This document shows, one piece after another, positions 40,611-58,027 of a stretch of 64,000 nucleotides of DNA. This DNA comes from Marsupella aquatica (Eukaryota > Plantae > Marchantiophyta): NCBI GenBank assembly GCA_973895155.1, contig OZ316897.1, positions 17,218,058 to 17,282,057 on the forward strand. The letters are read 5' to 3'. Position numbers and translations under genes: made by a program. Position 1 is the first letter of the stretch, and each line of letters begins with the position of its first letter. A model generated the notes under the pieces. That model saw nothing but the letters and a program-made list of their open reading frames with translations, had not been told where the DNA came from and searched no databases.

Positions 40611-41877
40611 CTCTGTATTCCCAATTGAGGTGCCTAAAATACCTTTGTTCCTCTCGTATTGGAGAGCCGGCAGTCGTCTTCATACAACTGCGATCACTCA
40701 CCGTAAGCAGTGAAGTGAGCTTTTTATTATCAATGTACATCTACACAAAGCAATGAAAGTTCGCAACATGCAAGCAAGAGACAAACCAAGAAGTCCTTTT
40801 AAAACTCAGCGAATTGGCTGCTCAAGCACACAAATGTTTTCTCCAATTCAAACTAAATTAAGTGCACTTCAAACGTTTCCTCCAACATTCCCCAACTAAG
40901 CCAAATGTATTCAAAAAGATCCGACTTTTCTTCCGATCAGTAAATGAGCAAGTTATAGCTTTCTAGAGAAGGCTGGGGGAACTTGGGAGCTCACACCGGT
41001 ATATATTTCCGCATAAACCGGGAATAGGGAGAACATGTTACTTTCTTCTTGCCTATCAGGTAAATGAGCAAGTTCTAGCTTTCTAGAGAAGTAGCAATCA
41101 CAATCGAGTCAGCTGAAAAACGCACGACAAGCATACACAGCATGGTTTCTGATGTTAGGCTCCTGGTGTTACACGTAGGCCTTATCCCCATAGAGGCTCT
41201 GGAGGCGGCTCCACCGTAATAAAGCCATGAGAGCCTCACTCTTAAGGGAGGGTCACCGCAAAACGCGGAACTCCGCCTCTCGGTTTGGCATGCTCTGTTC
41301 CTCTCGAAAGATATCGAGATGTTGCTTTTTTGGGTGATTGAGGCTACACTCATGGAGTTCACTTTGACTTGGTTGTCGTCTAGAGTCACTTTATCAGTTG
41401 AGTTACGGGAAACGAGCGCTTGATGTCACACCATCTACAGGATGAGCTGACTACAAGACCTGCTTTACAAGGCCGTGAAGCTCCCTGCCTAATAACATCG
41501 ATGTGGCATATGTGGATGCAATGCACCTAAGTCACCCACGATTTGCGAGAGGGGTGAGTGCACAACAACCGTAGAGGACGTGCAGCTCAGAAAGAGGAGA
41601 CAGGTCCCGATTGACATGTCCAGGAGCTTGGTGTACCATTTTGAAAATCTGAAGTGGGCTTAGAGCAGTAACCGTCCATCTCGCTAGCCTTTCGATTTTT
41701 GTTGCTAACAAAAGCATTGTGCTGACGACCTTAGACTAGGATTTGGGATCACTGCTTTCAAAGAGGAGAGGGGTTGAATCCTTGGCTCGTCGAAGTCTCA
41801 TGTTTTTCCGCTACTAGAGTTGAGCACCCACATCAGTCTGCTGCTAGATTGCTGCTGCTGCTGGTGTGGGAAGCCAA

Positions 41878-43164
41878 ATGGCAGGGCAAGCAGTGCTGCA
41901 TTGTGGTCAGCCGCTGGCCTCCGTGGATGCGCTGCTAAGAAATGCTGGGCCATCTTCGTCTTCGTCGACCTCCTCGTCTTCGTCTTCGGTCAATTTCGCA
42001 GCTGCAGCTCAGAGGAGGAGCTCTCGCTCGCGAGTAGCGCAGTCCTCTTTCTGGGGCGCTCTGGAGTCCGACTCTGGGCCCTCCTACTCCATCTTCTTGC
42101 CGGCTGAGAAGCGCTCATTACTATGTCAGAGAGCAGCAGCAATTGGGGGCAAATCCACCATCGCCACCACAATTGTTGCAACTGCGGCTATGTCCGGCAC
42201 GCCTGTGAGGAATACCAGCATTCTCGTTGTGGGGGCAACAGGCACGCTGGGCCGGCAGGTAGTGCGTCGAGCACTCGATGAAGGGTATGATGTCCGCTGT
42301 CTGGTACGATCCAGGCCCACTCCAGCTGACTTCCTTCGTGATTGGGGTGCCATCGTCGTCAACGGTGACTTGAGCAGGCCAGAGACTCTGCCAGCCACTC
42401 TAGTGGGTATCCACACCATTATCGACTGTGCCACTGGGAGGCCCGAGGAGCCCATCAGGAAGGTGGATTGGGACGGGAAGGTGGCTCTGATACAGTGTGC
42501 GAAGGCCATGGGAATCCAGAGGTTTGTGTTTTTCTCAATTCACAACTGCGAGAAGCATCCTGAGGTTCCTCTCATGGAGATCAAGCGGTGCACTGAGAAG
42601 TACTTGGCTGATTCAGGGCTCAATTACACGACCATAAGGTTGTGTGGCTTTATGCAGGGAGTGATTGGACAGTATGCGGTGCCCATTCTTGAGGAGAAGT
42701 CTGTTTGGGGAACGGATGCTCCCACTCGTGTGGCTTACATGGACACCCAGGATGTTGCTAGATTGACGCTGACGGCATTGAGGAATCCGAAAACAGAGAA
42801 GAAGTCGCTGACCCTGGCTGGACCGAGAGCTTGGACGACTCAGGAGGTGATCAGCTTGTGTGAGAGGTTGGCAGGGCAGGACGCTAAGGTGACAACAGTA
42901 CCAGTAGGGATGTTAAAATTTACCAGGATTTTGACCCGGCTCTTTCAGTGGACATCTGATGTTGCTGACCGCCTTGCCTTTTCAGAGGTGCTTTCAAGTG
43001 ATGCCGTTTTCTCTGCTCCCATGACCGAAACGTATGGATTGCTGGGTGTCGATCCGAAGGATACGACCACTCTGGAGCTGTACCTACAAGAGTACTACTC
43101 ACAGATCCTGAAGAAATTGAAGGAAATGAAAGCCACATCGAAGCAGGGTGATTACTACCTTTAG
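41878..43164 (+). CDS. HCF244: HCF244/Ycf39, atypical short-chain dehydrogenase (NmrA-like) PSII assembly factor, intronless CDS
   Basis: Ser-rich transit peptide, then GTPVRNTSILVVGATGTLGRQVVRRALDEGYDVRCLVR...PADFLRDWGA, HPEVPLMEIK, WTTQEVISLCERLAG and ADRLAFSEVL. Confidence 0.96.
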   Translation: MAGQAVLHCGQPLASVDALLRNAGPSSSSSTSSSSSSVNFAAAAQRRSSRSRVAQSSFWGALESDSGPSYSIFLPAEKRSLLCQRAAAIGGKSTIATTIVATAAMSGTPVRNTSILVVGATGTLGRQVVRRALDEGYDVRCLVRSRPTPADFLRDWGAIVVNGDLSRPETLPATLVGIHTIIDCATGRPEEPIRKVDWDGKVALIQCAKAMGIQRFVFFSIHNCEKHPEVPLMEIKRCTEKYLADSGLNYTTIRLCGFMQGVIGQYAVPILEEKSVWGTDAPTRVAYMDTQDVARLTLTALRNPKTEKKSLTLAGPRAWTTQEVISLCERLAGQDAKVTTVPVGMLKFTRILTRLFQWTSDVADRLAFSEVLSSDAVFSAPMTETYGLLGVDPKDTTTLELYLQEYYSQILKKLKEMKATSKQGDYYL

Positions 43165-45023: not shown

Positions 45024-46601
45024 CTACCATCTGTCCCTTGGTCTCTCAATCGTTGCAACTTCAGGTCTTTGAAGTCTGCTTTCCGTCAGTCTAGGGCGTA
45101 AGTCTTTATAGGTCTTCGCTAGTTTTCGTGGAGATGGAGCATAAGTCCTAACAGGGATCTCTGCGTCATTCATTGAACTTTCATCACCTTCTCTTTCGTC
45201 CTCATCGGACAATTCATCGTCACTCTCACCTTCTTCATCCTCATCAAATTGGTCATTCCAGTCGCCATCTTCATCTTCATCATCATCGTCCTCATCCTCA
45301 TCACCTTCTTCGCCTGCATTTTCTGATTTCATGGCTTTGGTCCGAGCATGCACAAGCGCGCTCAGGCGCTCCCTTGCTAAAACCAGAGGATCCTTGTCTA
45401 CGAGTTCTGAACCTTGGTAAGCTTCACGAAGGAAGACGGAATCCCTGTGGCCCTTGAATGAGACGTAAAACATTTCAGGATGGCGGATGAGCGTAGCCCT
45501 GATTCTCTGTGAGAACTTGAAGTCCTTTTTGAAATGGGTGAGATGGTCCACCAGGGTCTTCTTCTCCAAAGTCATGCTCAAGAGCTCATGCACAGTTGCA
45601 CATGCTCTTTTTTCTGCTTGTATAGAAGCCGGATCCAAATCTGTTGCATCAGAATAAGGTGACACGTACGGAATCTGCTGAAACCTCAATGCAACTACTC
45701 TGTCCTTCTTGGCAAGGTTCAAACCTTTCGGCAGATTCAGCCTTTTGTTGCTCATTTGTGTTGGAACTATTTCCTCCCCATCTATGACAATTCTAGTTCT
45801 ATCATCCACTTTGTTAGCCTCCGCTGCTGCTTTCTTCTGTGCAGCACAAATCGCCAACAGCGGGTCCCAAAAAGTAAGCTCTAACGCAGGCCCAGTCTCT
45901 GTTTCAACAAGCTTAAAATACTGGGGGTATTTAGGTAGGATACTAGTTCTGAAGTCCTCAGGTAATCCCAAATCATTTTTTATGTGGGCAATTTTGTCGA
46001 TCGTAAGCCTCTTATCCAAGGACATCATCAACAATTTCCTTAGCTTTTCTACGTGGAATACTTCCAAATTTGCTTTTATCCTCAGCTCCTCTTCGTACTG
46101 AGCTTCAGCCTCCTCTGTGAAGCGCACGTACATTACATTGCAGCCTTCCTCGTAAACCTCGAACACAGCCGGATACTTGTTTAGGAGAGCGATCACTCGC
46201 CTCCTTCCCGTCAATGCGAAATTCTTCCTATACTTTCCCAGCTGCAGCAGCGTCATCGTCCGGCCCGGCTGCTTGATCAGAATGTCCTTGATCTTATTGA
46301 CAATCCTCACCTTCTTCTCTCTTTGGACGACATTATCAAATGCGGAGTCCTTCCTGCGCTTGATTTTTGCCCGGGCGCCTAGCGATCGGCTGGGATTCCA
46401 AATCCCATACGCAGGGAAGGTAACACATTGCAAGCTTTGTGTGCATCCGAAAAAATTCGGGCGAGTGATCCGGACCGTGGTCTCGGAGGTGCAGGGCAAA
46501 CCTGATGATGACAGCACGCCGCTCCTACCAGCAGCCGAGAAGAAACGAACCGCCGAAGCTGCTGATAGCGCCCTCGTCAGTGACAACCTGAACGACGCCA
46601 T
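45024..46601 (-). CDS. WTF1: PORR-domain organellar RNA-binding/splicing factor, WTF1 type, intronless
   Basis: KRRKDSAFDNVVQREKK, KLRKLLMMSLDKRL, DLGLPEDFR, GPALELTFWDP, PYVSPYSD, AEKRACATVHELLSMTLEK and RHPEMFYVSFKG, followed by an acidic C-tail. First ATG at 46601. Confidence 0.9.
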   Translation of the reverse strand: MASFRLSLTRALSAASAVRFFSAAGRSGVLSSSGLPCTSETTVRITRPNFFGCTQSLQCVTFPAYGIWNPSRSLGARAKIKRRKDSAFDNVVQREKKVRIVNKIKDILIKQPGRTMTLLQLGKYRKNFALTGRRRVIALLNKYPAVFEVYEEGCNVMYVRFTEEAEAQYEEELRIKANLEVFHVEKLRKLLMMSLDKRLTIDKIAHIKNDLGLPEDFRTSILPKYPQYFKLVETETGPALELTFWDPLLAICAAQKKAAAEANKVDDRTRIVIDGEEIVPTQMSNKRLNLPKGLNLAKKDRVVALRFQQIPYVSPYSDATDLDPASIQAEKRACATVHELLSMTLEKKTLVDHLTHFKKDFKFSQRIRATLIRHPEMFYVSFKGHRDSVFLREAYQGSELVDKDPLVLARERLSALVHARTKAMKSENAGEEGDEDEDDDDEDEDGDWNDQFDEDEEGESDDELSDEDEREGDESSMNDAEIPVRTYAPSPRKLAKTYKDLRPRLTESRLQRPEVATIERPRDRW

Positions 46602-47294
46602 TGCTGCCAATCCTCAAAACCCTAAACCCTGCCAATCCTCCACAAATCTCCTCCACCTCCTTGTTTTCAGTTTTCCGCACTCAATATTCCCGAGCGAAAT
46701 GAGGGCTCTCTCTATAAAAAGTGCTCCACCTCCGCAGGAGAAATCGCTCGGGACGGGATGAAACGGTGGTGGGATTCTCAATTTTTGTCAGTTGCTTGTT
46801 ACACCATGACAATCGGGAGTCCCGATTGCCGCAGACAGATTCAAGTGAACTGCAGGCGCCGTCATTGCAGAAATTCCAGTACCACAAATTCAAAGATCGG
46901 TGAATTCAAAGATCACCGAATGCTCAAAAGGCCCTCTCTGTGCTTTGCCGACAAGGTTTGGACACAATCTCTGTGCTGGGTTTCGACACAATGTTTCAAC
47001 CAAGTGTGGGACGCAGCGAAAGAAACCGAGACAGAGTGTGAGTAAATCGATTGAGCTCAGATTTCTTTGTAGGACCTTGAGAAAACTTGCTTCGACCTGG
47101 TTGCGAACGACTTGCACGAGACAGAGTAGTAGTAAACAATTGATGGAGCTCACATTGCTGTGCGTAGTTTCAACACGTTGCTTCAACCTATTAGTACTAG
47201 TGAATGGAGCAAAAAATAGCTCGCTCCCACAACCAAGTGGCTTTTGGTCCTATTACCACTAGTGTGGTTGCAAAGGAATTGAGCAAAAAGAAGG

Positions 47295-51199: not shown

Positions 51200-51851
51200 A
51201 TCAAGATAGAATTGTCAGCAATCAATGCATTCCGAAGAGTTATGTGTATCGACAAGCATTTAAAGAGGTGCTACATTACAAATCAACCACGGTGGCAAAT
51301 CCATGATTGAGTGTGTGCATATGACCTATGTTTCATCTCTAAGTGAGATTCAACAAAGGTACTTGACATGTCCTCCACACAAATGACCAGACCTTTGCAT
51401 ATGCTGGGGCATTGGTGTGTCTTTCCAAGGCTTTGTATACAAGTATGTGAGAAATAGGGAGAGCACAACTGTGAAATCATTGAGACAGTTATGTGTTACT
51501 GATCAAATTATTTTTTAGGAGCATCTTTGACAGCCCACAAAGGAGGATGTGGAGACTCAATTTTGGATCAATGAGAAGCATGGATTCTCTCAGTCTCATT
51601 TTGCTTCACTTGATTGTATGCATTATAAGTGGGAGAAATGCCCAATCGCTTAGCAAGGATTATTCACCAACAAGGACGTGGCCAAACGTATTATGCTCAA
51701 GGCTGTTGCCAACCAATCCATGCATGTGGATCTAGCATGCCCACTTTGGATTGTTCTTGGGGGGGCAAGGGGGGGGGGGCAATGTCATGAATATGCTTGC
51801 TTGGTCTCCATTGATGAACAATCCGCTGCAAAATGCTCATCATGTTCTACG
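51200..51851 (+). pseudogene. PIF/Harbinger (Pong-like, DDE_Tnp_4) transposase pseudogene, interrupted by the tyrosine-recombinase element
   Basis: Translates as KHGFSQSHFASLDCMHYKWEKCPIA*QGLFTNKDVAKRIMLKAVANQS...HAHFG...SPLMN. This matches the family pattern GSIDCMHWxWKNCPxAWxG...IILEAVAxxDLWIWHAFFG...SPL. Possible continuation (DVNGH; IIIHNAMV) at ~56020-56415. Confidence 0.75.
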
Positions 51852-51858
51852 TATAGGG

Positions 51859-52003
51859 TAACGACGATCTGGTCGACCGTTACTGGGGTGTAACGGGGCG
51901 ACCGGGTTCTGACACAGGTGTGATCGGCGGTAGCCGATCACGCCTGGGGAGGAAACCGGGAGGATCGGTACACCCCAGTAATGGACGGCCTGGATCGTCG
52001 TTA
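51859..52003 (+). other. ~145-nt imperfect hairpin at the left end of the element
   Basis: Nested paired blocks TAACGACGATC/GATCGTCGTTA, CCGTTACTGGGGTGTAACG/CGGTACACCCCAGTAATGG, CCGGGTTC/GAAACCGG and CAGGTGTGATCGGC/GCCGATCACGCCTG, around a GGTA loop (51929-51932). Confidence 0.85.
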
Positions 52004-52451
52004 ACGTACGTAATCGCGATCTAGGTTTCAGGTTCACCGGCTCATGAAGGTTAAAACAATTCCAGGTCATTGGATCGAAGAGACGCTGTATCGGGACCGT
52101 CAATTTGATCGTAGCGAAGGTGGGAGGGGGTATTCTGCAAATCGGGTGGGCTGCAGCTATTTCGTCATGACGTTGAACGAGGTAGAGTTGGGAGGCAGCG
52201 AAGCGCTGTGCGATCCGGCGGGGCAAGGCCAAGCTCGGAGACTACAGACTACAGCGATGCGCGATCCGGCGGGGCGAGGCAATGCAATGGCGATGGTGGT
52301 GGTGAAAGCTTGGAGATGGTGGCGGGATGGAGCGCGGCGCGTTTGAGCTGGTTTCAAACCAAACGCGACTGTGTTGCAACCAGGGGGAGCCTTACATTTT
52401 CAGTTCTATTTTGTTTGAATTTTTGCATGCGCCATGCATTGTTTGCAGATC

Positions 52452-54847
52452 ATGGATAGCGGGGTGGAAGCAAATGCAACATTGAAGTGGAGCGTCGTTA
52501 TATCGTTCGATTGCTTGTTGTTGAGTTGTAGTACTTATGCATTGCTACGGATGTTGAGTAGTCAAATGGCTGTAGCGACTAAGCAACTTGTGTCGTTCGG
52601 AGTGATCTGTGAAGTAGCTCGTATGAAGATGGAGGGAGAGTTAAGCGATGAAGTTGTTCCTGGCGATTATTCAGACGCTGAGAGGGAGATGTTTTATATG
52701 GATGATTTGAGTGTTGGTGGGGAGACTTGTGACCTTTCAGAGTTTGATTCGGCCACTGCATTTGACGAGGCATCTATAGAAGCTGTTTCTTTGGATGTTT
52801 TGTCTACTTTGGTCGAGCCTGATCGAGAGCTTGTCAATGAGGTTGAAAGTGGGCTGCAGGTTATTGAGCAGAACCATTTGGATCAAGCGGCTGCAAGTTC
52901 GTCCACCTTGAGGCAAGATCTAGACGTGGAAGTAAGCCTGCCAGGCTTGAGACTCCTGCCTGATCCTGCTTTAGAGGAAGCAGGCCGAGGACTGGAGAAG
53001 TTGTCGTCCGAACGGAATGATCAATGGGCTGTTAGGAGGGCAGACGGGTTGCGGAAGGGGATGGGGTGGGACTTGAGTATTGCATTTGGAGACTTGTCAC
53101 TTGTGCAGGTGGACGAGTTGCTCAGCAACTATTTTGCTCGAGCAGTGAAGAAAGACGGTAATGTTTACCCATCATCTTCACTCATGAACCAAATGAATAG
53201 CTTCAATCGAGTGTTGAGGCGAGGGAGTGATCTGAGATCGCTGAAGGGCTCTTCTTACATTATGCCGAGAGATTTCAACATCAACTCACATCCGGCTTTC
53301 TCAAGAACTCGAATGGTGCTGAAAGCTGCCATCAAGAAGTCTCCAAGGGAGGGGGCTAACAAGAAACGAAAGAAGGTGAGAGTTGTCAGCTTGCATTGCC
53401 TTTAAAGATGTCGTGTGCTTGTAGATCTATTCTGCTGCTTCTGACTTTTGGATGTTTAACTGATCCAGGTTGAGATATTGACAGAGGAGCACGAGAAATC
53501 TATTATGGCTGACATTGACCACCAAGTGACAAGCAGCCATGGATGTCAAAAGCGCTTGGCATTTTACTGTTTGGTCAGGTTTGGCATCCGTGGAGGTGGC
53601 GAGCTCTATGACCTCCATAGAGGCGACTTATCTGTATGCATTGACAAGGCAGGAAGAAGCTATGTGCAGTAAGTGTTTTCTGTTCAGGTGATATTTATGT
53701 TTATGAGATGTAACTTTGTTGTATCTGTTTCTTGTGTGCCAGTGATACTAATAAACATTTGAATTTGTTCAGGTTCGAGGAGCGCCAAAGTAAGAATAAC
53801 TCTTACACGCTCGATCGATACAACGAAGAGCAGTTTAGAAAGATGTATCATAGTTACGAAGTTGATTTTGTGCTGACTATTAATCAGTACAAACGCCATT
53901 TATCTCCAGAAGCAGAGTCGTCAAAGCCTGACCTCTTTATGCAGGCGATTACCAATCCTGCCGGGAATGTTTGGTATAACAAAGTCCACAAGGTAGGGAG
54001 AGATACTGCTGCTCATTGGCTTAAGAATATGTTGGCGCTGGTGGGGCTGCCCCCTAATCTTTTTTCCAACCGAACTGGAAGGACCACACTAATCTCTCGA
54101 CTAGCTGCAAAAGGAGTCCCTGATGTGGTTGGTATGCTGATTAGTGGGCATCATTCAACCAGAGGTTATTCTCATTACGACAGAACTCAAGAACTTAAGA
54201 TGGAGGCTGCAGCCCTGGTCTCTGCTAGTCCAGGCCTTGATTATGAGAAGGCTCTTGGACATGTTTCGAAGTCTTTTGTCCAGGAGAAGCTTGTTGGATC
54301 ATCCGAGGGTCTGAAACCCCTTGTTGACAGGGTGAACGAAAAGGCTAATGTGCAGCCTTCACTCATGACACTTGTACAGGTATGTTCATGAACTTTGATT
54401 TGTTTGTGAGTGAGTTTCTTGGTATTGTTTCTAATGGAAATTTCGTTGGTTGGCAGGGATGTACCGGTTTGAGTGGAGTACTAGGAGAAACATCAGCAAG
54501 AGCTTCACAACAGGTTTGTTTCTACCTGTTTCAACTTTCGGTTGCTGCCTGTCTAGCAAGACTGAGATTAATGTTTGTTTTGTGTGTGGCAGGAAGGAAG
54601 CCACGTTGTTGGGGATATGTTATTACAAAGAACAGATGCTGCCAGATGGGATTCGTCCTATGACATAATTGATTGGGTGGGCGAGTTGTTGAAGCAGAAC
54701 CCTTTGCTTCACGAGAGAATTTCAGGCCCACCACTAGCCAGAGTTTCTGTGGGTAGCAACATCTCTGGAAACTCCTTCCACAATTGTTCAGTATCAATTA
54801 AAATTGTCAAGGCAAGGGAGGATGAGAAGGAGGACGCAGGCCCGTGA
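52452..54847 (+). CDS. Tyrosine recombinase, DUF3504/Crypton type, 5 exons, reading frame intact
   Basis: Exons: (start uncertain, 52452 or 52623)-53375, 53469-53668, 53773-54379, 54457-54513 and 54593-54847, with four short GT-AG introns in consistent phase. Motifs: YFARAVKKDGNVYPSSSL (core-binding), FGIRGGGEL (catalytic R), ERQSKN (K), SNRTGRTT (HxxR position), ISGHHS (H), GYSHY (nucleophile Y), and C-terminal FHNCSVSI as in animal DUF3504/Crypton proteins. Confidence 0.85.
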
Positions 54848-55204
54848 TATTTTAGTTAGTGATATTTTACTTAGTTTTCAGATATTTCAGTAAAGTAGCA
54901 TTAGCAGGAAATAACAGTAAGTAGAAACATTGTACATATAAGGAATTTACTGATATGGCTGTATCGGCTGAATCAACACACCTATGTACAGCAAGAATGG
55001 TTTTACTATTCGATTAAACTTTGCATGACTCCCTTGAATAAAGTGGAATTTTTTAGTACTTTACTTCTTCCAAATCACTATTTGGGTTCAATGCTAAAAG
55101 TGAATAAAAGTTTTACGACTGTGAACTCAGCATACACAAAGCTGAAACATCAAATCATACCCTATTCTGAAACCCCTTGTTGACACAAGCCTATTCCGGA
55201 CCTA

Positions 55205-55395
55205 TTGAAGGATGGAATATGCCAATTGAATGTACACGTATGGACCCACGTATGGATGGAAAATGTGTTTTGGATGGAATATGTTTAAGGTGGATGAAAT
55301 ACTAATTTTCCATCCGGTAGTTATGGGTTCTGTAGCTGCATTACGGGATTCCGTAGCCAGGTTACAGAGTTCTGTAGCCCATGTTACAGAGTTCC
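55205..55395 (+). repeat. Subterminal arrays: GGATG(G)AA motif x4, then 3-4 ~21-bp palindromic units
   Basis: GGATG(G)AA at ~55210, 55254, 55272 and 55292, with an inverted copy at ~55308. Units: GTTATGGGTTCTGTAGC, ATTACGGGATTCCGTAGC, GTTACAGAGTTCTGTAGC, GTTACAGAGTTCC. Confidence 0.75.
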
Positions 55396-58027
55396 AAAAC
55401 GTCAGATGTGTCAAGAAGGCAGATTACGAGAATACAAGGGACCCCCAAAATAGGGTTACACGCAGGTAACCTGAAACCAAGACCGCGATTACGAGCCCTA
55501 TGCTAGTGCTTTGCACTGTGCAAGGAGGGCCAGGGCATTTATGGGGCAAATCAAGAGCAAATGCGTGCGTCAGTGCAGTAGGCCAAAGTCAAGTGGAGAC
55601 ATGGAGTGGAGGGCGAGGCTGGACTTGCTTGGCTGCTTTCTGCTTTCTGCTTTCATACATTGGGAGTCATCGTTGTTGGGACGGAGGCATCGGTGGGAGG
55701 CTGGGAGCATTCACAAGGGAGGGAGATGGATAAGGTAGAGGGGGGAGGCATAATGAATGCACGGAGTGGAGGTTTCGACATGGGGCCAGTATTGAAGATT
55801 GTATTGTCAGGCATGGGAGCCCTAGACAGAGACAGAGAGGATGGGCCGATGCGAGGTGATTGAAGACGGTATTGTCGGGCATGGGAGCCCTGGCACGTGA
55901 ATCGGATGGACACGCAAAATCTGATGCCTGTATCTAATGGTCAATTTTGATTTCCGCCGAAATTGAAATTTGTAACGGGACGAAGGACGAAATTGGCAGC
56001 ATTGCCTATTACAGTGTTAGATGTCAATGGACATTCGTAAAGGGCTAGGTTTTATTTTCTTTCCATCAACTCACCACAACACTTCCCACATAAGATTTGC
56101 CCAGGAAAAATGGCTGTCCCGTGGTTGTGTATTGGTACAATGGTGTGTCTTATCTTACGTCCACCTTCGTAGGAAGAAATTTTAAGTAGCACTCCCCTCT
56201 CTTGCACTCGCACAAACCAGTGCCCTCATAGGGAACAACCAGTTCACAAGTAATGAGTCTGGTTGACTTATCAGGTGGGGATGGAAAGCAAAGTCTATCT
56301 ATATTATGTTTAGTACTATCCTATTAATAGGGCATTGTGGAATGCATACTGCCATGATGACGGATGGCCTTAGCTTGAGTTTTGACGAGCTATTATTATC
56401 CATAATGCTATGGTAACAAAGTTAATACACTTAATGGTCTAAGAGAATTTAGTGCTTACTAGTCAGTAAAAGCGAGAGAAGATTTCATAGTTAGTTATCC
56501 AAATCTTGAATGTGCATTTTTCTCCACAAATGTACTGAAAATTACAAAGAGAAAAATCACCATAGCCTTTGAGTATTGTAAACAGGCCACACTTGACTCA
56601 ACCAGCAATTCGTTGAGTTCAAAATTTGTCAAAATCCACCCTGTTGAGAAAGGTTTGCCACAAAGCATAGCAAGAGCTTTCAAATCTCATTAGCCAGTCT
56701 CCATCCAAGGCACAGGGCCCATTGGCAACCATGTAGCTGCTCTCCTGAAGTCTAGGGAGATCTAACACTGTAAAACAAATCTAGGGAAATGTTAATAGAG
56801 AATATTTCTAGCAATTTTGGGGCCTCAAGAATGTGAGCCTTTATACAAATGGAAGATACTATTTAAGTTCAAAGTAATGTTTACAAATGGTCCATACAAG
56901 TTTTTGTCAAATATTGTGGTTCAGCCATTTGCCAGCCTAAGTGAATTAAATAACCCTAAGAAAAGTATTGGAACTCCACCTCATCCAGAAAGCTTTGCAA
57001 GGGGCAAGTCTCCCACCAAATCTGAGGGCTCTCTCAAATCATGGCAGACCGAATGGTCAAAATAAGTCTATAAAATTTCAAAGGGTGGTGTCAAACCTCA
57101 GATTAAATTGGACCTTGATTACAGTAAGTAGTTAAGGTTTGGGACAGAAAATTTATGTACTACCTATTCAATTCACGATCCATAACTTTTTGCAATATAC
57201 AGGCTAGTGAAAATGAAATGAAATTTTCACATAACCCTTTGAAAAAGGTGTAGCCACCATCGGTAAGTATGAAGCTTTTAAACGCAAGATTCCAAACATC
57301 CAGTAGTCTCCAGACTGTGGTAGTGTACACGTTACAGTCTACGTAGTACTACTACAGTAGTCTGTCTCAGCGCTCACCGCTTACTCACCTCACCACGCCT
57401 GACTCCCTGACTGACCTGTCTGTCTGCCTGTCCGCCTGCCGCCCAGCGTCGTGACTCCTCGTTCGCTCGTTCGAATTGGAATCGAACGAGATCCGATCGT
57501 TGACAGAACGAACAATAATAACGCCTCCACCTCGATAAACGTACGGCACTTTCGCCTCGCCACCAGATTTGCGCGGCCTTCGCCATCTCCGCCGTCCACC
57601 GTATTCCAATCCAGCGGTCCCGAGAACGCCACCACGCCCCCGTTCCGAGGTTCCGAAACACAGCAACACAGCATGCAGGCCTGCAGTAGTAGTAGTGGAA
57701 CGGGGGGACTACGACCGTCGACGGGAGCCGCCGGTCTCGAGCGAGCGCGCCGCGAAAGGAAGAGGAGAGCGGAAAGAAGGGGTGCTCATTCGGAGAGCGC
57801 GGACGGAGGATTTCGAAGATCGACGGGGGAGGTGTGAGTCGAGCGAGAAAGAAGAAGGCGAGGAAGGGGAAAGAGAGGAAGGGGGGTGACGGGGTGATCG
57901 ACTACGGTAGAGAGGTGAATGGAGGGGAGAGGAGGGGAGAGGAGAGTGCGAGAGAGAGTATGTCGACGAGGAAGAGGAGGAGGCGGACTGTACAGTAGTA
58001 GTAGTAGGAGGGACGGACGGGCGGGAG

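Follow-up and report, generated by a model that had tools for sequence, protein, structure and literature searches.

Within a 64-kb stretch of Marsupella aquatica DNA (contig OZ316897.1; this whole stretch is called the window below), a mobile element of 3.65 kb was delimited between positions 51848 and 55494. We consider it likely that the element is a multi-copy Crypton-type transposon of a liverwort, which carries an intact, intron-containing tyrosine recombinase gene, ends in TACG on both sides, and probably leaves its site as a circle to re-enter the genome through TACG(A). What the element is and where it ends are better established than its passage through a circle. In gene content, in the kinship of its recombinase and in its short terminal direct repeats it behaves as a Crypton and falls among the DUF3504-bearing ones; it departs from their published description in its split palindrome, its host and its four introns. 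The ends of Cryptons are notoriously hard to define, and here those of a plant Crypton-type element could be fixed to the base by independent copies. A first-pass annotation of the window had described a similar element with other ends, and the corrected ends replace its tidy but wrong junction before primers are designed.

Ends of the element and its other copies

The ends were mapped with contigs of public sequencing runs (four runs, two organism labels, two studies), among which no RNA run was listed as containing the stretch. A first pass admitted contigs at least 85% alike; a second pass, restricted to runs X1 and X2, required a likeness of at least 90%, and the stretch was cut at 55505 to exclude an abundant neighbouring repeat, named H. 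Logan contigs are built from 31-letter words, and contig assemblies omit rare forms. Loose ends of the second pass were counted among the 12 of 39 rows displayed. The interior of the element was covered by many contigs across all likeness bands in both passes, and contigs at 90% likeness or more over the element numbered 71 in X1 and 183 in X2. Several genomic copies exist, with at least three different left flanks and at least three different right flanks besides those of the window. A search within the window revealed neither another copy of the element or its ends nor another of repeat H. In metagenome contigs, a single-protein query gave 178 pattern matches, none of them confirmed, and the inverted-repeat pattern gave no match.

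At the left end, contigs from other copies start to match at 51848 (two contigs of X1) or 51847 (two of X2); at the right end, among the rows displayed, they cease to match after 55494 (one contig of X1, two of X2). Beyond both ends their DNA is unlike that of the window and differs from contig to contig, with an agreement of 0.62–0.73. In the first pass, the unique left-flank contigs of X1, X2 and X4 all stopped at 51877 (three of three listed) which, given the 31-letter words, places the start of the shared sequence at 51848. Together, the positions at which other copies start and stop define the element as 51848–55494. It starts with TACGTATAGGG and finishes with GCGATTACGA, and the sole repeat common to both ends is TACG, a word with a frequency of 1.4 per kb and strand in the window. 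At 55494 the window and the three other right ends all have an A, and copies of H that lack the element show just one (T)ACGA at the corresponding position. Like Cryptons, which carry at their termini a direct repeat of 4–6 bp that matches the target, the element is multi-copy and has a 4-bp terminal direct repeat with no separate target duplication, at ends for which other copies gave independent evidence. Directly left of the element, at 51752–51784, there are runs of G (GGGGGGGCAAGGGGGGGGGGGGCAATG).

The recombinase gene and its relatives

The gene within the element has four introns, all GT..AG, and an intact frame predicted to encode 686 amino acids from the first in-frame ATG, the putative start. 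Its closest full-length relative is a protein of Calypogeia fissa (P0001), 52% identical over 580 amino acids when aligned to a model with exon 1 three bases longer; the ferns Adiantum capillus-veneris and A. nelumboides also have relatives, which bear the annotation hypothetical protein. In Pfam, the translations of four window exons gave no family at an E value up to 1, nor did P0001, and the window protein stays below the curated cut-offs of both DUF3504 (PF12012) and Phage_integrase (PF00589). A search of exon 3 against 1.84 billion representative proteins returned 128 relatives with E values up to 0.001; P0100, P0112, P0116 and P0117 were found at 8e-5 to 3.5e-4. These four proteins pass the Pfam cut-off for DUF3504, P0100 and P0116 also that for Phage_integrase, and P0112 and P0117 that for the QRICH1 domain. 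The link of the window gene to DUF3504 is thus transitive, from exon 3 through the four proteins to PF12012. A profile of exon 3 and 33 relatives matched a QRICH1 chain (2e-5), integrase 3nkh (5.5e-5), XerA (2.5e-3) and, weakly, Cre (0.08).

The predicted model of the homologue P0001 has a predicted local distance difference test score (pLDDT) mostly of 73–93 over residues ca. 212–571, with short dips to ca. 51–67, and shows the two-domain fold of tyrosine recombinases, core-binding and catalytic. It matched Cre with an E value of 2e-6 and a probability of 1.00 over about 340 columns (template modelling score of 0.50 on the target), and 47 chains at E up to 0.001, including Tre, QRICH1, XerH, Tn1549 Int and XerA. 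When exon 3 was modelled by itself (pLDDT 77), Foldseek found no match with an E value of 0.001 or below, and the best VIA Z was a weak 5.1, shared by HetR and an integron integrase.

Five residues are conserved in the window protein when it is aligned with MAFFT: both arginines (the first in GIRGGGE, the second in NRTGR), the lysine of SKNN, the later histidine of SGHH and the tyrosine of SHYDR. All of them align with those of the relatives bearing DUF3504 or Phage_integrase. At the position of the histidine of H-x-x-R, the DUF3504-bearing P0100, P0112, P0116 and P0117 keep H, the window protein and P0001 have R, and the plant relatives P0012, P0020, P0023 and P0038 have K. Type IB topoisomerases have a lysine at the matching position. 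The change from H to R or K in the plant clade sits near the NRTGR motif of exon 3, in the region of 54201–54203. A perfect 20-nucleotide (nt) direct repeat, family D7, joins the coding part of exon 3 (54310–54329) to the 3' non-coding part (55166–55185), and is too long for chance.

Eight further open reading frames (ORFs) of the element yielded no Pfam family at the curated cut-off and no transposase family; one had a sub-threshold DUF2650 row (E of 0.06, 13.5 bits versus a cut-off of 22.9). As in Cryptons, then, a tyrosine recombinase is present, and neither reverse transcriptase nor DDE transposase is found in the exons and the eight further ORFs. Since the DUF3504 domain is derived from Crypton recombinases according to the passages of Kojima and Jurka that deal with it (PMC3212892), kinship with DUF3504 proteins makes this a Crypton-type gene. 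It is a divergent and apparently intact Crypton/DUF3504-type tyrosine recombinase gene, and the proposal of the first-pass annotation that such an enzyme is encoded here is borne out by the distant Pfam-positive relatives, the profile, the alignment and the model of P0001.

The joined-end palindrome and the proposed movement

The core of the long hairpin at the left end is an imperfect palindrome of 153 nt (51854–52006) with TACGTA on either side (51848–51853 and 52007–52012). The DNA of 51847–52045 is predicted to fold with −62.4 kcal/mol (z = −10.3), and none of 200 shuffled sequences folded as well. In addition, a 26-nt inverted repeat links the two ends, its arms being complementary at 24 of 26 positions with no match expected in shuffles. 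Within the chromosome, the right arm lies at the very end of the element and the left arm 161 nt from the end, behind the hairpin. All three copies of GATTACG in the window sit in the ends of the element (52009–52015 on the minus strand, 55422–55428 and 55487–55493); their number is as chance expects for the window, and their placement alone is suggestive.

When 55493 was joined to 51852 through TACG, the predicted fold deepened from −66.7 to −90.9 kcal/mol, and both long arms aligned from the inverted repeat via TACGTA into the hairpin. In a circle, the right arm of the inverted repeat would prolong the 5' arm of the hairpin, to form one palindrome of ca. 215–230 nt. This palindrome would have two TACGTA motifs in mirror arrangement and likely the binding sites of the recombinase. 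The earlier idea that circularisation sets the right end beside the left hairpin is strengthened by these results, as the TACG junction gives one continuous palindrome. The two ends make sense only together, as one palindrome, and may provide a concrete recombination site for a eukaryotic tyrosine-recombinase transposon.

That the element is excised as a circle, with the crossover inside TACG, is inferred by analogy with the circle model of Goodwin and co-workers, as it is quoted in PMC3212892, PMC9977147 and PMC13465315. In this model, both TACG ends would be brought together by the recombinase, which would release a circle with one TACG, and this TACG would recombine with a genomic TACG(A), leaving TACG on either side and no other duplication. 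The window copy likely entered a TACGA formed at the very start of repeat H. In the sections of the sources that address these points, the 4–6-bp terminal direct repeats of Cryptons are regarded as recombination substrates (PMC3212892), and CryptonF-1_cRei, the active Crypton of Chlamydomonas reinhardtii, terminates in CACCG, targets CAYCG and moves in just this way (PMC9977147). The present element resembles the latter in that terminal and target motifs coincide, here as TACG and TACG(A), and both belong to the green lineage.

A more specific proposal is that a previously undescribed land-plant Crypton lineage, of liverworts and ferns, has a structured site, in which the recombinase would act on an extruded hairpin or cruciform, with the two mirrored TACGTA cores in the stem of the palindrome, rather than on a flat lox-like duplex. 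It might then be likened to integron integrases, which act on folded attC sites; we regard this proposal as unlikely.

Among minor features of the ends, short direct repeats (CCAGGTTACAGAGTTC and CCATGTTACAGAGTTC) lie within 55320–55400, and GTAAC/GTTAC motifs, possible protein-binding repeats, reach 4–7 times the density of the gene body in both non-coding ends. Rfam returned only two sub-threshold miRNA-like rows (27 bits versus 128, and 30.9 versus 60), and a scan for sigma-70 promoters, a bacterial model irrelevant to a plant, found nothing. Coordinates are collected in Table 1.

Table 1. Features of the element and of its right flank, in window coordinates
Feature	Position	Strand	Remarks and basis
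Whole element	51848..55494	+	3,647 nt, both TACG repeats and the conserved A at 55494 counted in; ends of other copies
Left TACG, terminal direct repeat, likely crossover core	51848..51851	.	Sequence and left ends of other copies
Right TACG, second copy of the direct repeat	55490..55493	.	Sequence and right ends of other copies
Long left-end hairpin, 165 nt	51848..52012	.	Fold and inverted pairs I1 and I5
Left arm of the 26-nt inverted repeat	52009..52034	.	Contains GATTACG (minus strand)
Right arm of the same inverted repeat, with GATTACG at its end	55468..55493	.	Inverted-repeat search
Third GATTACG, possible extra binding motif	55422..55428	+	59 nt inside the right end
Tyrosine recombinase gene	52434..54847	+	Five exons; splice sites and open frame
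Exons of the gene	52434-53375, 53469-53668, 53773-54379, 54457-54513, 54593-54847	+	Gene model
Flank, start of the separate high-copy repeat H, with the CCCTAT and GCTAG of the first-pass annotation	55494..55774	.	Contig starts and depth

Alternatives, the neighbouring repeat and known systems

Repeat H adjoins the right end and bears on several of the alternatives. Its left end reads (T)ACGAGCCCTATGCTAGTGC..., also given as (T)ACGAGCCCTATG, and it is found in many places without the recombinase element, being far more abundant. Contigs that start to match at 55490, 55491 and 55494 numbered 29, 23 and 12 in X1 and 28, 19 and 20 in X2, and in all four runs the best-supported loose ends were starts at 55490, 55491, 55493 or 55494. 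Ahead of these starts the DNA is A+T-rich and without a consensus (agreement 0.42–0.51). Summed contig depth, which by the warning of the tool itself is no copy number, amounted to 1249 (X1), 3567, 1199 and 8146 in the four runs for the bin 55344–55524, versus ca. 18 to 110 in unique-flank contigs (18 in X1). As H contigs stand behind unrelated DNA, CCCTATG... is contiguous with TACGA where the element is absent. Other copies of H have about 16–20 letters after 55531 that are missing from the window copy (loose ends behind 55530–55533). Unique right-flank contigs begin at 55745 (two of three listed), which indicates that the repeated sequence ends near 55774. The idea that H is a non-autonomous relative moved by the same enzyme was dropped, as neither of the positions at which it seems to end on the right (55774 and 56021) has a TACG. 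A pair of 33-nt units with 91% likeness lies at 55791–55823 and 55859–55891; each finishes in GGGAGCCCT, which echoes the GAGCCCT at the start of H.

According to the first-pass annotation, the element runs from a TAT at 51852–51854 to another at 55499–55501, with TA(T) as crossover core and a circle junction CCCTATAGGG with AGCCCTAT between the ends. The letters on which this was based are real: 51847–51863 read CTACGTATAGGGTAACG and 55490–55506 read TACGAGCCCTATGCTAG, both TATs are in place, and joining them would make a perfect 10-nt palindrome. Such a configuration, a 3-nt direct repeat whose joining makes a perfect 10-nt palindrome, is uncommon, though no rarity as a product of chance: it arose in 1.4% of 20,000 random pairs of 31-nt pieces taken from the window 3.65 kb apart; 14.8% of the same pairs share an inverted repeat of at least 6 nt. 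Against it, all four left-end contigs match from ahead of the TAT, and all three displayed right-end contigs diverge after 55494, ahead of CCCTAT, which places the proposed junctions 4 nt off at the left and 7 nt off at the right; the annotation itself had named copies with different ends as the observation that would speak against it. No loose-end row at 55498–55501 was displayed. The CCCTAT half of the junction, at 55496–55501, lies outside the element and inside H, the start of which is CCCTATGCTAG..., and AGCCCTATGCTAG... recurs in dozens of contigs with no element ahead of it. Moreover, the eight extra letters would break the arms of the joined-end palindrome. This version is contradicted by the other copies and is extremely improbable: a short direct repeat is present at both ends, as the circle model expects, its sequence being TACG and not TAT, and the coincidence of the TATs and CCCTATAGGG is left as chance. 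Alternatively, the inverted repeats might be the substrate of a DDE transposase from another locus, which would duplicate TACG as a 4-bp target, the recombinase being a passenger; this would cover the hAT-like TAGGG...CCCTA element with 8-bp duplications that the annotation had named as an alternative. The 26-nt inverted repeat exists, TACG at both ends formally resembles a duplication, and a fusion of a Crypton and a Mariner, MarCry-1_FO, is on record in the part of PMC3212892 that treats it. The left arm of the inverted repeat, however, is not terminal. TAGGG and CCCTA do occur close to the left and right ends, respectively, but CCCTA is outside the element; there is no 8-bp duplication, the flanks seen differ apart from TACG, and neither a hAT transposase nor any other transposase family was found among the ORFs. 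We know of no DDE superfamily with a fixed TACG duplication, and the explanation is highly improbable.

Another candidate for the mobile unit is suggested by one contig each in X2 and X4, ca. 88% alike in the flank (paralogous or homeologous), which lacks 51850–56021, that is, the element and 528 nt more, comprising the element, H and 247 further nt. This diverged contig joins 51849 to ca. 56022, its 26 letters in between fitting 56022–56047 at 21 of 26 by a hand count, and its left break coincides with the left end of the element. Against the whole block as the mobile unit, the other copies end at 55494 with unrelated right flanks, and H is far commoner without the element; there is no TACG at 56018–56021, and with a flank diverged by ca. 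12% several separate events are plausible, so that movement of the whole block is highly improbable. Finally, in a variant of the Crypton-type reading, the 153-nt hairpin would be a separate small palindromic element that entered, through recombination of the same type, the TACGTA spacer of an ancestral lox-like site with two inverted arms of 20-odd nt, and duplicated TACGTA. The TACGTA motifs that bracket it are the signature of a 6-bp Crypton-type insertion, and, with the hairpin taken out, the right arm (55468–55489), TACGTA and the left arm (52013–52034) form a near-perfect inverted-arm site. Yet no excess depth was observed for it (bins 51780–52029 versus the interior), nothing points to free-standing copies, the hairpin also opens the other copies seen, and no hairpin-free copy occurs among the contigs. 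This variant is possible, though on balance unlikely.

Several observations also weigh against a Crypton-type element that moves through TACG. Its ends are supported by four left and three right contigs, under two organism labels that are possibly close kin. Judged by sequence alone, TACG at both ends is indistinguishable from a 4-bp target duplication of a site-specific kind. Among the contigs, from which rare forms are dropped, none runs from 5549x back into 5185x, so that a circle or tandem junction is not seen, and a clean empty site of the window copy is not among them either. The DNA flanking the junction TACG offers no inverted-arm pair of lox or FRT type, and the window protein, with putative activity, has R where H-x-x-R has its H. 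The coincident left break of the diverged contig is explained on this reading only if the element entered TACGA at the boundary of an earlier insertion, and the TAT coincidence mentioned above remains on this side of the balance.

The Crypton-type element may be compared with known systems as follows. It resembles the DUF3504-bearing (CryptonA-like) Cryptons, as presented in the relevant parts of Kojima and Jurka 2011 (PMC3212892) and of the Glomhopper paper (PMC13465315), in that the tyrosine recombinase is the only recognisable enzyme, and DUF3504, Phage_integrase and the QRICH1 N-terminal domain are found among its relatives. It is unlike described Cryptons in its land-plant host, a liverwort, its fern relatives, the four introns of its gene, the R in place of the H of H-x-x-R and window exons that pass no Pfam cut-off. 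It also has a 26-nt inverted repeat and a 165-nt hairpin, whereas Cryptons are described with neither inverted nor long direct terminal repeats in the corresponding account of PMC3212892. As far as the pertinent sections of PMC9977147 go, CryptonF-1_cRei is of the CryptonF group with a GCR1_C domain, no palindrome is mentioned for it, and its insertions and clean excisions were observed; it is the only Crypton family caught moving; mobility of the present element, unlike this, is deduced from its copies. With Cre/loxP and FLP/FRT it shares the recombinase fold, according to the model of P0001, and inverted arms around a short core if the hairpin is set aside; unlike in those systems, the arms are separated by the 153-nt palindrome and a second TACGTA, and the genomic partner appears to share TACG(A) only. 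DIRS1-type retrotransposons have a tyrosine recombinase and terminal inverted repeats that become meaningful in a circular junction, and they encode reverse transcriptase and RNase H. The present element has a tyrosine recombinase and a similar inverted-repeat logic; unlike them, it has no reverse transcriptase or RNase H in its exons or ORFs. These retrotransposons are mentioned in the portion of PMC13465315 concerned. The element points to a Crypton lineage in liverworts and ferns, and no description of such a lineage was found in the papers searched on Cryptons in liverworts, land plants, bryophytes and ferns, Repbase and supplementary lists being outside the scope of this survey.

A neighbouring gene points to a liverwort other than Calypogeia fissa as the host. 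This apparently intronless gene on the minus strand (45024–46610) encodes a PORR-domain, WTF1-like protein that is 78% identical to a protein of C. fissa and 61–64% identical to Riccia proteins. A second apparently intronless host gene, on the plus strand (41866–43164), encodes an NmrA-like NAD(P)-binding protein.

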